A stretch of DNA of 64,000 nt from Chthoniobacteraceae bacterium (lineage in GTDB: Bacteria; Verrucomicrobiota; Verrucomicrobiia; Chthoniobacterales; Chthoniobacteraceae). Position numbers: made by a program. This document shows, piece by piece, positions 15,001 to 21,000 of this stretch. Where the stretch lies: NCBI GenBank assembly GCA_031409655.1, contig JANNXQ010000127.1, forward strand, positions 1 to 64,000, in the 5' to 3' direction. Every line of letters begins with the position of its first letter. Positions within the stretch are counted from its first letter, which is position 1.

Positions 15001-18000
15001 TTTTTCCCCAGCGAGTGGAAGCATGACGCGCGAGCGTCCGGCGGAGACTTGTCAGCGTCAAGCTCCGCGACCATTGATGGCCCCGACGGTTTCACTTTGT
15101 GCCCATGAAAATTCTCCTCCTCCCTCTGCTTCTCCTCGCCAACTTCGCTGTCGCAACCGCGCAGCAGGCCAAACCAGCGCCACTCCCGTCCGGCATCGAA
15201 GTGCTGCGCGACATCGAGTACGTCCCCGGCGGCGGCGAACGTCATTCGCTGGATATTTACGTTCCGGAAAAAGCCGGAGCACCCTTGCCGTTGGTCGTCT
15301 GGATTCACGGTGGCGCGTGGAAGGCAGGCAACAAGGCCAACCCGCGTGCGCTGCCGTTGCTCGGAGCTGGGTTCGCGGTCGCCGCGATCAACTACCGCTA
15401 TTCGAGCGAGGCCGTCTTCCCCGCGCAGATCGAAGACTGCCGCGCGGCGATCCGTTTCCTGCGCGCGAATGCGGCCAAGTATCGCATCGATCCCAAAGCG
15501 ATCGGTGTCTGGGGATCCTCTGCTGGCGGCCATCTCGTGGCGATGCTCGGCACCGCTGGAGACATGAAAGATTGGGACAAGGGTCAGAATCTCGATCAAT
15601 CAAGCCGCGTGCAGGCGGTGTGTGATTGGTTCGGTCCGAGTGATCTTCTCACCATGGGCGCGCAGGGCGCGAACGATCGTCCGCTTCCCGCCACCGATTC
15701 TCCCGAGTCGCCCGAGAGCCAGCTTATCGGCGGCAATGTGCAGGACCACAAAGACAAGGCGCGCGCGGCGAGCCCGGTGAACTACGTGAGCCCCGGCGAT
15801 CCGCCCTTCTTCATCGTGCATGGTACAAAAGATCCGCTCGTGCCGCTGGCGCAGAGTCGCGAACTCCACGAAGCGCTGAAGCTGGTGGGTGTCGATACGA
15901 CTTTGCACGTGGTGCAGGGCGGGGGACACGGCCAGGGCTTTGATCCGGCGCTGATGAATACTCTGGCCCGCGACTTTTTCACGAAGCACCTCGTGAAGCG
16001 CTGAGCGTGGGAGCGCCGACGTCCCGTGCGGCAATCGTCCTCGCCGCGAAGCGGCCATTTCGCTTTTAGAGAATGGCGCGCTGCGCGCGGAATGATTTGG
16101 TTTGCCGCACGGGACGGCGGCGCTCCCGTCAATCCGCTCGCGGGGCCTTGAGTTGCTTGAGCAGCGCGGGACGAGTGGTCGGAAGACGGTGATAGACGCG
16201 ACCCATCGCTACGGCGGGGGTCACGCCGGGCTGGCCTTGGATGCCGAGCAGGCGCACGAGTTCGGACTCGAAGTGCAGCAGCGCGCGCAGGTTCGGCTCC
16301 TGGGCATTCAGGTATCCGAAGGCGCGCTGGAGCAGTGCGTAGAGTTCGGGCGCGGGATGATCGGTCTCCGTCACGAGTTCGATGAGTTCGACAAAGTACG
16401 AGGCGAGCGCGACTCGACCGTAGTCGAGTCGCACACCGGCGTGCGGATTGCGGAGCGCCACTTCGCGCAGGATGTGCAGTTCGCTCCGGCGTGATCGCGC
16501 GAATTGAATTTCGCAGTCGAAGAAAAGATCGAGCACACCGGCAAACTTGCTCTTCGCCTGGCGCGCGCCCTTCGCGACCGTCTTGAGCTTTCCGTGATCC
16601 GCCGTGAACCACGTGATGATGAGGCTCGTCTCGGTGAGCTTCGTCTTGCGGAGCAGGATGGCGGACGTCGTATCCACGGCGCTACCGTTGCCGATTGCGG
16701 AGCGTCGCCAGGGCGAGCAGCGGCCAGTTATTCCGATACATGTCGTAGCGCAGATAGAAGACGCGCGGAAAGCCCGTGCCCGTGGTCTCCGGTTCGGGCC
16801 AGGAGCCGTCGGGATTTTGCCGCTCGGTGAGAAAAGCCACGCCGCGTCGAATCGCCCGGCGCTCGATCATCTCCGGTGGCGAAGCCGCGAGCAGGCCCAT
16901 CAGCGCCCAGGCGGTTTGCGACGGGGTGCTCGGGCCTTTGCCCTTCAAGTGCGGATCGTCGTAGCTCGCCGCCGTCTCGCCCCAGCCACCGTCGTCGTTC
17001 TGGCAACTCTCGAGCCACTCGCGCGCCCGCACGATCCAGTCTTGGCGCATGTCTTCGCCGATGGCCTGCAAGCCGCGCAGGACCTGCCAGGTGCCGTAGA
17101 TGTAGTTCACGCCCCAGCGGCCATACCACGAGCCGTCCGCATCCTGGGTCTTGTGGAGAAAAGTGAGCGCATTCTGCACGGTAACGCTCTCGCGCGGATG
17201 GCCGATGCGCCCGAGCAGTTCGAGGACGCGTCCGGTGAGATCGCTGCACGTCGGATCGATGATCGCGTGGTGATCGGCAAAGGGAACCTCTTCCAGCCAG
17301 CGCTGCGTCACATCGCGATCGAAAGCCGCCCAGCCACCGTCCTTGCACTGGAAGCTGAGCAACCAGCGCAAGGCACGCTGAAAGGATGAAGGATGAAGGA
17401 TGAAGGATGAAGTGTCGGGTCGTGGCATTTCCGATCCCGCCGCCGAAGGCCCATCCACTTCATCCTTCATCCTTCCGCCTTCATCCTTTCGCCCCAGCGC
17501 CAGCGCCATCAGCACCATCATCGTGTCGTCGGTGTCGGGATAGTGGACGTTGTTAAACTCAAAGGCCCAGCCGCTCGGTTCGACGCCAGGATTCTGCACC
17601 CGCCAGTCGCCCCCTTTGCGGACCTCCTTCTTTGCGAGCCAGACCATGGCGCTGCGGATTTCCTCCCGCTGCGGATCGATTCCGCTTTCGATCAGCGCCA
17701 CCAGATTGATCGCCGTATCCCAGACCGGCGAGAGACACGGTTGAATGCGGAAGTCCTGCGGGTCATCGACAAAGAGCCCCGCGAAATCCTTCTTCGCCTT
17801 CACGAGCAGCGGATGATCCGCTGGATAGCGCAGGGTCTTCAGCGCGATGAGCGAGTTCAGCATCGCCGGGAAAATCGCCGCGAGCCCATCGCTGCCTTCG
17901 CCCATGCGCTGCGTCATCCAGCGTTCCGCGAGATCGAGTGCGCGGCGGCGCCAGGGCTTCCAGGGCACGCGATGGAGCAGCTTCAGCAGGCGGTCGCAGG

Positions 18001-21000
18001 CGAGGAAAAAATTTGGCCACGAGAGCCGCGGATGACGCCACGCGAGACCGAGATTTTCCTGCTCACTGCCGATGGGATAGAGCTCGTGGAGGTGCAGTGC
18101 TCCGGGGAGTTGGCGGGTCGGTTTGTAGTGATTGAGGATCGCCAGAGGCACGAGCATCGCGCGGCTCCACGAGGAGAGTTCGTAGAGGTGAAAGCCGCAC
18201 CAGCTCGGGAAAAACATCATCTCGACCGGCACCGTCGGCAGATACTTCCACGGGAACTGGCCGAGCAGCGCGAGGTAGAGCTTCGCGTAAGTATTCATCC
18301 GCGGGATGCCGCCGAGCCGCAGCACACAGGCGCGGGCCTCGCGCATCCACGGATCGGTGGGCGAGTGGCCCCCGAGCTTCAGCGCGAAGTAGGCTTTCAC
18401 GCTCGCATTCAAGTCGCTCGGTCCGCCGATATACAGACTCCACCCGCCATCGCCGAGTTGGCGGCGGCGGATGTGCGCCACGCATTTCTCCTGGAGCACG
18501 CGGTCCACCTCGTCCGCCCAATGCATGTAGAGCACGTAGTCCGAGCAGAGCGTCACATCGGCAAATAGCTCGCCGCACCAGTAGCCGTCCGCGTGCTGGA
18601 GGCGGAGGAGATTCTGCTGCGCGCGGGCGATGGCGCGATCGAGCGCCGACTGCTGGTCAGAGTCGGCGGGGTGCGGCGTTCGATGTTCGATGTTCAAAGT
18701 TCGATGCTCGATGTTTGATCCGGGGCTGAAGCTCAGCATCGAACATCGAACTCCGCACGTCGAACCTCGAACGCATCGTCCCCTCGCTTGCACTGCGCCC
18801 TTTGCCCCACCATCTTCCCCGCCCGCCCGGTATGACGCCCTCCACTTTTCTCTCGCTCTACGAAAAACTTGAGAAGCTCGTGCGGCGGCTGCCGGAAGGT
18901 CTGCAGCAGCCGATCCTGCGCGAGATCACACCGATCAAGACGCTCTTCCTGCTCCAGCGCCCGCCGCGGCTCGTGCTCGTGGGGCCGGGCGGCGCGGGCA
19001 AGGCAGAACTGCTCACGGCGCTCTTCAATGCCGAACTGCTCAAGCCCGGGGAGGAAAATCTGAACGAAGGCACATGGGTGAAATTCACCCGCGGCGGCCA
19101 GGGCTCACTGCAGCTCCTCGATGCGCGCCGACCCGTCTCGCAGGCGCTCGTGAATGCGGCGCTCGCCGAATTGCCGCCCGATCTTTTCATTTTCGTCCGC
19201 CGCGCGAGTGAGATCGATGACTCGCTGGCGGCGGACCTGGACCATGCCGAGGCGCTGCTCTCGCACGCCGAGAGTCGGCATCAGGCGCGCGGAAAAATCC
19301 TCGGCATCCTGCTCGACGCCGGCCCGGTGGAGGATCGCGAGCGGGCGCGGCAGGATCTGAATGCCTGCCTGCACACGCGCGATTCGCTGAGCGCGCGGAT
19401 GCTCGGCACGGTGGCCCTCAGCGGCGAGGGAGCGCTCGCGCGGCTCGCGGAACTCATCGCCGTCGAACTGCCCGGGGAGGCGCAGCTCGAGATGGCGCGC
19501 CTTTCGGGGAACAAGGAACTCCAGCGCCAGATTGCCAATGTCGTCATCAAGTCCGTGACCGCGATCTGCGCAGCCATCGGCGCCCAGCCCATCCCGCTCG
19601 CGGACTTCCCGATCCTCACTTCGCTCCAGGCGCTGCTCGTGGCCAGCGTGATGCATGTGAGCGGACGCGAGATGAGCGCAAAGCTCGGGGCGGAATTCAT
19701 CGCCGCGCTCGGCGCGAATATCGGCGCGGGGCTCGTCCTCCGCGAAGGCGCGCGGGCGGTGGCGAAGTTCGTGCCGCTCTGGGGCAATGCGGTCTCCGGC
19801 GCGGTCGCGGGCGCCGGCACTTACGCCATCGGGCGCGCGGCGGCGGCCTACTTCATCGACGGACTTTCGATCGCCGATGCGCGCGCCATTTTCCGACGGA
19901 AGAAGAGCCCGAGATTTCTGGAGCGGAAGCCATGATGCGAACGAACGCAACCAAGGAGCAGGGGCGCCCTCGCCCCGAGTATCATTCACGGGGCGGGGGC
20001 GCCCCTACTCCTTGATGAAACCTTCCGAAATCCGCGAGACGCTCGACCGTCTCGGCAGCCGCCCGACGCAGAGTCTCGGGCAAAATTTCCTCCACGATCG
20101 CAACCTCTCCGAGTGGATCGTCGCGCAGCTCGACTTGCAGCCGGGCGAGGCGTGGCTCGAGCTCGGCCCGGGGCTCGGAGCGATCACGGAATTTGCCGTG
20201 CAGCGCTCCACGAACGGGCTCGCGATCGAAAAGGACGGTCGATTGATTCCATTTCTGAACGAGCGTTATCCGGCTCTCGAAGTGCGCCACGGGGATGCCG
20301 CGGAGTTTGATGTCCGGGAGCTCTTCGCGCGCGGCCCGGTGAAGGTGATCGGCAATCTGCCGTACTACATCTCCAGCCAGATCCTCATTGGCTACACGGC
20401 GGAGCCGAGTCCGGTGAGCACGCTCGTTTTCACCCTGCAACGGGAACTCGCCGAACGCCTCGCCGCCGAGCCGCGGACAAAGGCCTACGGCGCGCTCACG
20501 CTCCTGCTTGGGCGGCGGTGGAAGGTGAAATATCTGCGCACGATTCCGCCCACGGTTTTCGCGCCGCAGCCGGGGGTGGATTCCGCGGTGGTGCGTTTCA
20601 CCCCGCGCGATCCGGGCGAGATGCCGGCGTGCGACGGGGTGCAGTTTAACCGGCTGGTGAAGCTCGGCTTTGCCAAGCGCCGCAAGCAGCTCCACAACAA
20701 CCTGGGGGCGCTCGATCTCGACTGGCCCGCGCTCACGGCGCATCTCGGCGTGCTCGAGACGACGCGCGCCGAAGAGCTTTCGCTGGAGCAGTGGATCGCG
20801 CTCACAAACTTCGTCGCCGGGACTCCCGGAGAAGCGGGGGCCGCGGGCGCGCAGGATGTGCATGGCGAAATTTTCGACGTGGTCGATGAACAGGATCGAG
20901 TGACCGCTCAGGCGTCTCGTCATGAAGTCCACGCTGGCAATCTGCGCCACCGCGCGGTCCACATTTTCGTCACGAATACGCAGGGCGATCTCTTTCTGCA

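Follow-up and report, generated by a model that had tools for sequence, protein, structure and literature searches.

The presented results indicate that the tandem heptamer arrays lying in frame inside protein genes of this genome (G000, 95% complete) are probably by-products of small mobile cassettes with clade-specific repeat units, in which a four-helix-bundle gene of the 23S-IVS family (TIGR02436/PF05635) stands between inverted arms of 3-5 heptamer units. The earlier note on this DNA was right that the in-frame arrays are real, but it missed this probable source. The window, the whole stretch of 64,000 nucleotides that was analysed, holds both coding and intergenic forms of the element (Table 1), and the hairpin between moaC and its neighbour is the common, non-coding one.

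Table 1. Heptamer-repeat features of the window and the squalene-hopene cyclase (SHC) gene
Feature	Positions	Strand	Remarks
Intergenic AACATCG hairpin	8169..8277	.	gap between moaC and molybdopterin-binding-domain gene; z -6.7
Intergenic AAACGCC/AAACTCC hairpin	9869..10012	.	z -5.6
SHC gene	16682..18739	(-)	open frame, DxDD motif intact, start uncertain
3' arm of SHC in-frame hairpin	17380..17412	(-)	perfect inverted heptamer run, SSFILHP repeats
Spacer of SHC hairpin	17413..17457	(-)	inner motif at its beginning
5' arm of SHC hairpin	17458..17490	(-)	AAGGATG units, KDEGGRM-type peptide
Second hairpin, over SHC gene start	18678..18774	.	AACATCG family, reversed polarity, common to G001; z -6.3
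Single AAGGATG-family array, in frame	26544..26573	(-)	molybdopterin oxidoreductase (26084-28342)
Intergenic single AAACGCC array	49507..49555	.	seven copies
Single AATCCGC-family array, in frame	55675..55707	(-)	DUF1549/DUF1553 protein (53378-56302)

The SHC reading frame reaches 679 bits against TIGR01507 (cut-off 431). Its in-frame hairpin folds with a z of -8.6, and the 5' arm carries the variant AAGGCGG at the single spot where the pure repeat would create an in-frame TGA. The insert (residues 419-447) is predicted to be disordered and to lie between two barrel helices, directly after the DxDD helix. Measured between fixed anchors in the 23 loci covered, the loop comprises 61 aa in G000, 65 aa in G001 (AAGGATG family as in G000), 71 aa in G006 (AACGTCG family) and 44 aa in G008, and 32-39 aa, with no insert, in the remaining 19. 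These lengths bear out the earlier description of a hairpin that is in frame, represented by another family in G006 and absent elsewhere. The inner motif of the spacer is common to a few other AAGGATG hairpins of G000. A GPS peptide found in the spacers of both G000 and G006 was considered as a trace of common descent; this reading was dropped, the motif of G000 being present in further AAGGATG hairpins. Both candidate starts, ATG 18739 and the in-frame TTG 18697, lie within the upstream repeat hairpin. G001 has an in-frame stop in the spacer, so that only the TTG can serve as start there.

In the whole genome, 449 period-7 arrays were detected against 10-30 for periods 5, 8, 10, 11 and 13. 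Between genes lie 327 of them, 54-57 are situated deep within called genes and 23 at gene ends, close to the previous count of 69 of 430 arrays inside CDS. Such a genome-wide, mostly intergenic excess agrees with heptameric long simple sequence repeats. The in-frame location in conserved genes whose orthologues lack the repeat resembles coding palindromes of the REP/RPE type, but one conserved palindrome common to all copies was not found. Elements in open frames with coding signal on both sides number 36, about 6 of which are chance units; in-frame heptamer elements occupy open frames of about 30 genes, essential ones included; with gene ends, 67 called genes are touched. The exact totals proposed before (40 genes, 61 with long palindromes) were not reproduced by this recount. 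A scan of 34 proteins confirmed arrays in all 12 of the housekeeping genes that had been named (ArgRS, CysRS, LeuRS, UvrA, UvrB, MutL, RNase R, IspG, QueG, PolX, DnaE2 and SHC). Several of the arrays, which had in general been described as inserts, overwrite a linker at constant length, such as those of the DUF1549 paralogues and the IspG array of G000. Three genes are broken by arrays, which argues for frame-blind insertion. Hairpin spacers are, a few pairs excepted, no more alike than shuffles, and the hairpins are therefore not plain copies of one master.

The orientation of the arrays suggests that those inside genes are translated. In-gene single arrays run in the hydrophilic orientation in 10 of 10 cases, as against 15 of 41 intergenic ones (p 0.0003), and both in-gene sense arms of the AAGGATG family use a rare stop-free variant found in 3 of 97 intergenic units. 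Selection on the peptide, supported statistically by these sequence patterns, would give independent weight to translation, previously deduced from open frames. As the hydrophilic orientation coincides with the C-rich one, an mRNA-level bias may lie behind the skew. A different explanation is that the hairpins are excised at the RNA level, like rRNA intervening sequences, or skipped by the ribosome, so that the proteins lack the inserts and a stop in dxr is harmless. The dxr insert of G000 (120 nt) indeed has an in-frame TAA at its beginning, at the hairpin base; no second copy of dxr was found in this genome, nor was an HMG-CoA reductase with the queries used. The related stem of the Coxiella IVS is, moreover, cleaved by RNase III (PMC4990558). 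Nevertheless, about 30 open genes stand against 3 broken ones, although only about half of the frames across intergenic hairpins are stop-free, and 29 of the 36 in-gene elements are single arrays rather than hairpins. RNase III cleavage does not religate. A sign of RNA-level selection on the hairpins was not seen either: the sense strand shows no excess of G-U over A-C (58 vs 65 in 57 hairpins). Together with the peptide-level bias, these points make removal at the RNA level very improbable.

The dxr locus is informative also in other respects. The earlier account of a hairpin open in G006, TAA-initiated in G000 and absent from both genus mates proved accurate: G006 has an open insert of 123 nt, and the site is empty in 20 of 22 readable loci, with G001 among the empty genomes. 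The two inserts differ by a one-base unit variant and look like one element type rather than two families. The TAA may represent an assembly error, a real nonsense change or read-through, three readings that remain because none of the contigs assembled from 4 DNA runs of one study bridges the hairpin.

Different families recur in the same loops. Six heptamer families extend one and the same IspG loop in 11 of 47 orthologues; the carriers require at least five changes on the tree, and a single clade of carriers is rejected (p-AU 0.015). LeuRS has three sites where different families recur, and G066, G070 and G012 each tend to use their own family at several genes. These observations support recurrent use of the same loops, and in this part the claim that surface loops are recurrent insertion hot spots stands. 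Arrays avoid coding DNA, however, where they are 27-fold rarer (13 per Mb) than in intergenic DNA (361 per Mb), and a 'hot spot' may therefore be a place where insertions are tolerated and not a target. It is also possible, though we consider it the weaker reading, that each such site goes back to one old insertion whose arms were rewritten over time and which was repeatedly lost, and not to many independent hits. In dxr, G000 and G006 have inserts alike in site, length and inner motif while the closer G002 is empty, 8 of the 11 IspG carriers have a common change beside the insert, and the IspG sequences of G004 and G071 resemble remnants by eye. Such a history fits poorly with the scattered IspG carriers and with the genome-specific families, and at SHC the insert of G006 is a clean 35-residue addition whereas that of G000 replaces the loop.

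The link between arrays and cassettes follows from several lines of evidence. G000 has 10 cassette gene copies, all among protein genes rather than in rRNA, the location of S23p-type IVS, and cassettes stand in operon junctions both here and in relatives. The spacing of inverted arms is bimodal: the arms lie 13-98 nt apart in 99 of 111 pairs and 349-421 nt apart in 6, and all six wide pairs enclose a four-helix-bundle gene. A strong arm accompanies 63 of the 80 four-helix-bundle genes counted in the family, and the same unit is inverted in 39 of 55 both-armed cassettes; among control genes, only 4 of 531 have an arm of period 7 or 8 on each side. The unit is common to 49% of 93 pairs with 60-75% protein identity and to 1-2% of pairs below 45%; same-genome cassettes have a common unit in 3 of 52 pairs. 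Globally, protein distance and unit distance showed no significant rank correlation (Mantel-type test, rho -0.10), and a single orthologous junction holds 9 of 17 members in the case of one clade. The tree of the 80 cassette proteins was a quick one. In one protein clade, 58 of 78 loci, drawn from 10 phyla, have AAGGATG-type arms flanking the gene on either side (control 0 of 66). Housekeeping loci show a rising array density, from 1.8 to 3.1, 7.5 and 26.8 per 100 kb, in genomes with 0, 1-2, 3-5 and 6+ cassette genes, and a test for presence at the genome level yielded p 0.052, both in a sample in which kin are not independent. The cassettes enclose a PF05635/TIGR02436 gene in terminal inverted repeats, as IVS do, and the short in-gene forms lack it. 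Hairpin arms and some inner junction motifs match the cassettes in the manner of MITE terminal inverted repeats, but the cassette protein is a four-helix bundle with no recognisable catalytic motif and not a known transposase fold, and the relatives are too distant for clean junctions at which a target-site duplication would show. No Rfam match was obtained for six cassette loci or in a search of 8 loci. Two abundant groups, AAACGCC/AAACTCC/AAACTTC (80 arrays) and AACTCTC (22 arrays), have no cassette in G000.

The in-frame arrays may thus have arisen in four steps. First, cassettes with an Avd-like pentamer gene, each protein clade with its own heptamer unit, would settle in operon junctions, where they are observed. 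Second, loss of the gene would leave a short hairpin. This is seen at one site, where in place of a cassette present in nine relatives G000 shows a decayed hairpin, 64 nt long and of the same family. It is suggested at three more, as 3 of 11 other mapped junctions contain a hairpin of another family (background 180 of 3117). Third, DNA-level copying would carry arms and short hairpins to new places, blind to frame and often at partial unit matches or inside an earlier insert. Sequence would be added, or a linker overwritten, with whichever family is abundant in the lineage. Fourth, as the statistics suggest, copies inside genes would persist, and be translated, only where the frame is kept, stops are absent, the peptide is hydrophilic and the surface loop is tolerant, so the same loops recur across species with different families. 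As a guess, the pentamer could bind its own repeat single-stranded, and the host polymerase could copy it by template switching at microhomology. Five whole units mark a sharp upper limit of the arms, as 50 of 128 have five and only 6 have more. A bolder proposal, which we regard as rather unlikely, is that these pentamers are repeat-writing machines, in which a clade-specific heptamer, roughly one unit per subunit, is written or overwritten by the host polymerase at accessible sites. If true, this would be a mobile-DNA mechanism with neither transposase nor reverse transcriptase; it would also account for the heptamer excess of bacteria and continually supply new protein loops, with the same linkers repainted in each lineage.

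The cassettes could also be passengers homing into arrays made otherwise. Local polymerase slippage favouring 7-base units, an origin that Mrazek et al. 2007 put forward for heptamers according to the summary in PMC4679880, would with homogenisation by gene conversion create hairpins in which four-helix-bundle genes then settle, in-gene copies being slippage products kept in tolerant loops. The length-neutral overwriting beside unit-like codons in the DUF1549 paralogues and a split DUF4365 gene, the unique spacers and the whole short hairpin behind the gene in 22 of 78 cassettes are consistent with it. We hold slippage improbable, as it leaves the inverted pairs and the few fixed families unexplained and as one unit follows one protein clade across 10 phyla; the sharp end at five units also speaks against it. 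Fold-back copying is disfavoured, since variants mirrored between arms were not above chance (10 of 82, null 9.0). Mobilisation by Y1 (RAYT-like) transposases, as for REP elements, is suggested by 13 Y1_Tnp matches in G000 and by REP-like palindromes in its genes and, in the available part of PMC3733652, in Opitutus. Y1 partnership was rejected, with little chance left to it, since none of the 13 matches has a heptamer array within 500-600 nt and since the hairpins, unlike REPs, lean to divergent gaps and away from convergent ones.

To our knowledge, the 7-base repeat excess of bacteria has been noted since 2007 with no cause given; for the 23S-IVS protein family, two structures have been solved but a function has not been assigned. 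The cassettes could account for the abundance of such repeats in bacteria, and a repeat family tied to a protein clade makes both questions testable. The in-gene copies, in turn, map the loops of essential enzymes that tolerate 10-40 foreign residues, and heptamer repeats mislead annotation by creating false start codons and spurious ORFs. No publication stating the cassette-heptamer link or heptamer insertion into the same loop was found in a search that covered few subscription papers.

Cyanobacterial STRR heptamers and small dispersed repeats reportedly form heptamer arrays, some of them inside genes. In-frame palindromes (Rickettsia, Opitutus) and inverted heptamers (Xanthomonas) are already known. 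According to the accessible parts of the reports, GTAG REPs of Opitutus terrae, with loop tolerance suggested (PMC3733652), and Rickettsia palindromic elements (PMC10969869) lie in frame in housekeeping genes of the same classes as here (uvrA, uvrB, dnaE2, tRNA synthetases). Those elements are a fixed palindrome, whereas tandem heptamers with unique spacers are present here, and the REPs are tied to Y1 transposases instead of four-helix-bundle genes. Same-site insertion appears in the available text of PMC3733652 for recB only, as against one loop with six families here. Xanthomonas GGGAATC (PMC4692102) and Beggiatoaceae TAACTGA (PMC4679880) form, as here, dispersed arrays of about four units, often in inverted pairs, mostly intergenic with a minority in ORFs. 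In their accessible portions these studies treat one family each, against more than 10 here, and propose quadruplex or translational roles while naming no mobilising gene. In-gene copies are placed mainly at protein ends in the part of MacGregor's Beggiatoaceae work consulted (PMC4679880), whereas many lie in the core here. The Avd protein of diversity-generating retroelements is described, in the available text, as a pentameric ring binding an RNA stem-loop (10.1101/2023.10.23.563531). The cassette protein has the same fold (TM 0.83 to 4DWL), but Avd has a reverse transcriptase partner, and no such gene (PF00078) was found in G000 at 95% completeness. In the Coxiella IVS, tandem heptamers occur in terminal inverted repeats around the same protein family (PMC4990558), and in Xanthomonas a GGGAATC array lies over the start of Xcc0516, as far as the available text of PMC4692102 goes; by analogy, both fit the cassette model. 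The Coxiella element resides in 23S rRNA, whereas here cassettes occupy mRNA operon junctions and their gene-less derivatives lie inside proteins, for which RNA excision as in Coxiella is unlikely.

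In-frame heptamer inserts are a real feature of the genome under study (G000) and a new form of coding repeat insertion. Judging by protein families of PVC type, the host is probably a Verrucomicrobium. With a gene set of our own calls (5336 genes, dicodon model), 449 period-7 arrays were found, against 10-30 at each of five control periods; 327 were intergenic, 42 lay on edges, 23 at gene ends and 54-57 deep inside genes, at densities of 361 per Mb in intergenic and 13 per Mb in coding sequence. All twelve genes named in the earlier note as bearing in-frame arrays (ArgRS, CysRS, LeuRS, UvrA, UvrB, MutL, RNase R, IspG, QueG, PolX, DnaE2 and squalene-hopene cyclase) were borne out in a scan of 34 proteins, which also turned up UbiD, MsbA, MacB, PbpC, Lnt, LctP, Cas4/Cas1 and six DUF1549 proteins. 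REP-like palindromes occur inside genes too, e.g., one 16-mer with 13 of 110 copies intragenic. Tandem composite elements, in which mixed heptamer arrays enclose long palindromes of 9-base repeats, were seen at C127:93996-94600 (L038).

Array-bearing features (positions, where given, in window coordinates)
Feature	Position	Strand or context	Remarks
Squalene-hopene cyclase gene, intact	16682-18739	-	TIGR01507, 679 bits; DxDD motif by alignment to solved enzyme
In-frame hairpin arms, inverted AAGGATG family	17380-17412 and 17458-17490	inside cyclase gene	fold z -8.6
Genes split by arrays			dxr; DUF4365 domain; DUF1549 paralogue

The cyclase loop was covered in 23 of 24 aligned homologous loci, and between its anchors it measured 61 residues in G000, 65, 71 and 44 in the relatives G001, G006 and G008, and 32-39 in the remaining 19. 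The G001 insert belongs to the AAGGATG family, as in G000, whereas that of G006 is a clean addition of 35 residues of the AACGTCG family, which agrees with the earlier claim of a different repeat family at this very site. AlphaFold models cyclase residues 419-447 with pLDDT <50, between two well-modelled helices. A second hairpin overlaps the start of the gene; in G001 an in-frame stop in its spacer leaves a TTG within the arm as the sole start, and translation of the gene may therefore not begin at the ATG at 18739.

Surface loops had also been proposed as recurrent insertion hot spots. The orthologue samples (IspG, 47 of 60 matches; LeuRS, 50 of 60; UvrB, 30 of 59) deliberately included genomes with split matches, and the carrier fractions are therefore inflated. 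One IspG loop, without insert in G000, was lengthened in 11 of 47 orthologues, eight of them heptamer-coded, with six families in all; its carriers imply at least five changes on the tree, and a single clade was rejected (p-AU 0.015). The G000 array occupies a second IspG linker, where about 9 of 47 orthologues have heptamer-coded peptides with length, judged by eye, little altered. Three LeuRS loop sites were lengthened in 13, 16 and 3 of 50 orthologues, with arrays in 3, 5 and 2, respectively, and each of G070, G066 and G012 used a single family in both IspG and LeuRS. Recurrence is genuine; this analysis does not tell targeting apart from tolerance or from renewed invasion of older inserts. 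Two array-bearing DUF1549 linkers measure 29 residues, the median of six array-free ones. The dxr insert has its site, length and inner motif in common between G000 and G006, but G002 and G001 are empty, and therefore loss or transfer also happens. Near LeuRS residue 564, inserts of 158-188 residues were seen in G002, G015 and G006 (L357, L372, L365), two of them resembling whole domains.

Coding signal on both sides and on one strand accompanied 76 of 330 elements, of which 36 were open in frame (about six with chance-looking units) and 40 were not; by eye, 37 of the latter were stop-to-start junctions and three were split genes. The halves of the split DUF4365 domain align to profile positions 10-65 and 64-132. 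For dxr, no second copy besides the stop-bearing one and no HMG-CoA reductase were found in G000, and no contig bridging the hairpin among the assembled contigs of four DNA runs from one study. Of the frames through 93 intergenic hairpins 51% are stop-free, and of those through the AAGGATG hairpins alone (n=10) 13%. The AAGGCGG variant was placed where TGA would arise in both in-gene sense AAGGATG arms, against 3 of 97 units intergenically. Single arrays of families stop-free in either direction had the hydrophilic orientation, which is also C-rich and thus confounded, in 10/10 cases in genes and 15/41 between them (p 0.0003). Because of this stop avoidance, AAGGCGG use and orientation, the broken genes and the absence of a G-U excess in hairpins, we read insertion as probably frame-blind and followed by selection acting on the protein. 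The DUF1549 gene at C215:13136-13163 (L142) shifts frame within its array, which could reflect phase variation as units are lost, decay of the gene or a slip in assembly. A Shine-Dalgarno-like motif was seen in just 6% of G000 genes; C-rich sequence precedes starts and is provided by hairpin 3' arms.

The likely source is a cassette, i.e., a four-helix-bundle gene (TIGR02436/PF05635, the 23S-IVS protein family) between inverted heptamer arms. Spacing in 111 inverted arm pairs was 13-98 nt in 99 and 349-421 nt in six, and all six enclose a TIGR02436 gene; G000 holds ten such genes, and the four outside long arm pairs have degenerate or hexamer arms. The family was found in 85 of 121 genomes searched. 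A strong arm lay beside 63 of 80 cassette genes (66 of 531 control genes), and two-armed copies had the same unit inverted on the two sides in 39 of 55 (4 of 531 controls with two arms, period 7 or 8). The arm unit tracks protein clade on a quick tree and by identity bins, with nine members of one clade at one shared junction, but the global correlation of cassette protein with arm unit was not significant. Within a single clade, AAGGATG-type arms flanked both sides in 58 of 78 loci from 10 phyla (80 loci, two dropped for short flanks; control 0/66), a pattern defined after a first look at the data and with one search peptide overlapping an arm. Across 50 genomes, arrays at housekeeping loci are denser where cassettes are more numerous (rho 0.52; p 0.052 in a presence test). 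At 13 junctions occupied by relatives' cassettes, G000 has one cassette of its own, one decayed same-family hairpin and three hairpins of another family (background 180/3117). Against a simple story, two abundant array groups have no cassette in G000, and hairpin spacers are mostly unique.

Several cassette-like arrangements were also seen. Four of the ten G000 cassettes (C239, C144, C23, C47) adjoin genes that by sequence look resemble MoxR-type ATPases; at a fifth junction of this kind stands a short hairpin. The four-helix-bundle gene at C23:6337-6663 (L048) has hexamer arms; G000 carries 28 arrays of that hexamer, and an insert in G006 IspG looks similar. Near-identical four-helix-bundle genes in several genomes (C66:61121-61441 in G000; L115, L118, L236), with a fixed right and a variable left end, look as though they cause adjacent deletions. 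They sit between fragments that, by motif, resemble a type I methyltransferase gene. Both GxxExxY genes (TIGR04256; C28:11572-11922, L406, and C84:19614-19952, L405) are likewise enclosed, either by short hairpins or by inverted arms with repeat units of 8 or 9 bases, and by this arrangement would constitute a parallel cassette system.

The cassettes, common units, one scar, broken genes and selection signals are observations. Arms would be copied to new sites, and a pentamer of the cassette protein would take part in the copying. That in-frame arrays are by-products of such cassettes is the reading we somewhat favor; that pentamers direct the host polymerase to write their own unit is doubtful. 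A match to BT_0352 (five chains, E 2e-21) was found for the cassette protein, and the modelled G001 protein resembles Xcc0516 (TM 0.95) and Avd (TM 0.83). No reverse transcriptase (PF00078) was found in G000 (95% complete), none of its 13 Y1_Tnp matches lay near heptamer arrays (500-600 nt), and variants were not mirrored above chance between the two arms of a hairpin. Arm length ends at about five units. A Y1-transposase-like stretch lies between palindromes on C138 near 15902-16189 (L404), inside a 934-residue open frame resembling a tRNA synthetase, and a comparable one at C102:35377 inside a 1374-residue frame.

No published link between the TIGR02436 family and heptamer families was found in the literature searched. 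The feature can be tied in a testable way to two long-standing puzzles, the bacterial heptamer excess and the function of the 23S-IVS protein. Among known systems, in-frame REPs are described for uvrA of Opitutus and, in several species, for dnaE2 and genes of tRNA synthetases (PMC3733652), Rickettsia elements are summarised in PMC10969869, and heptamers in ORFs are treated in PMC4679880. Inverted GGGAATC pairs are 7-11% intragenic, and a table in the same source lists an array that overlaps the XCC0516 start (PMC4692102). The Coxiella IVS contains heptamers (PMC4990558), a four-helix-bundle gene is present in cas operons (PMC3936711), and Avd belongs to diversity-generating retroelements (10.1101/2023.10.23.563531).
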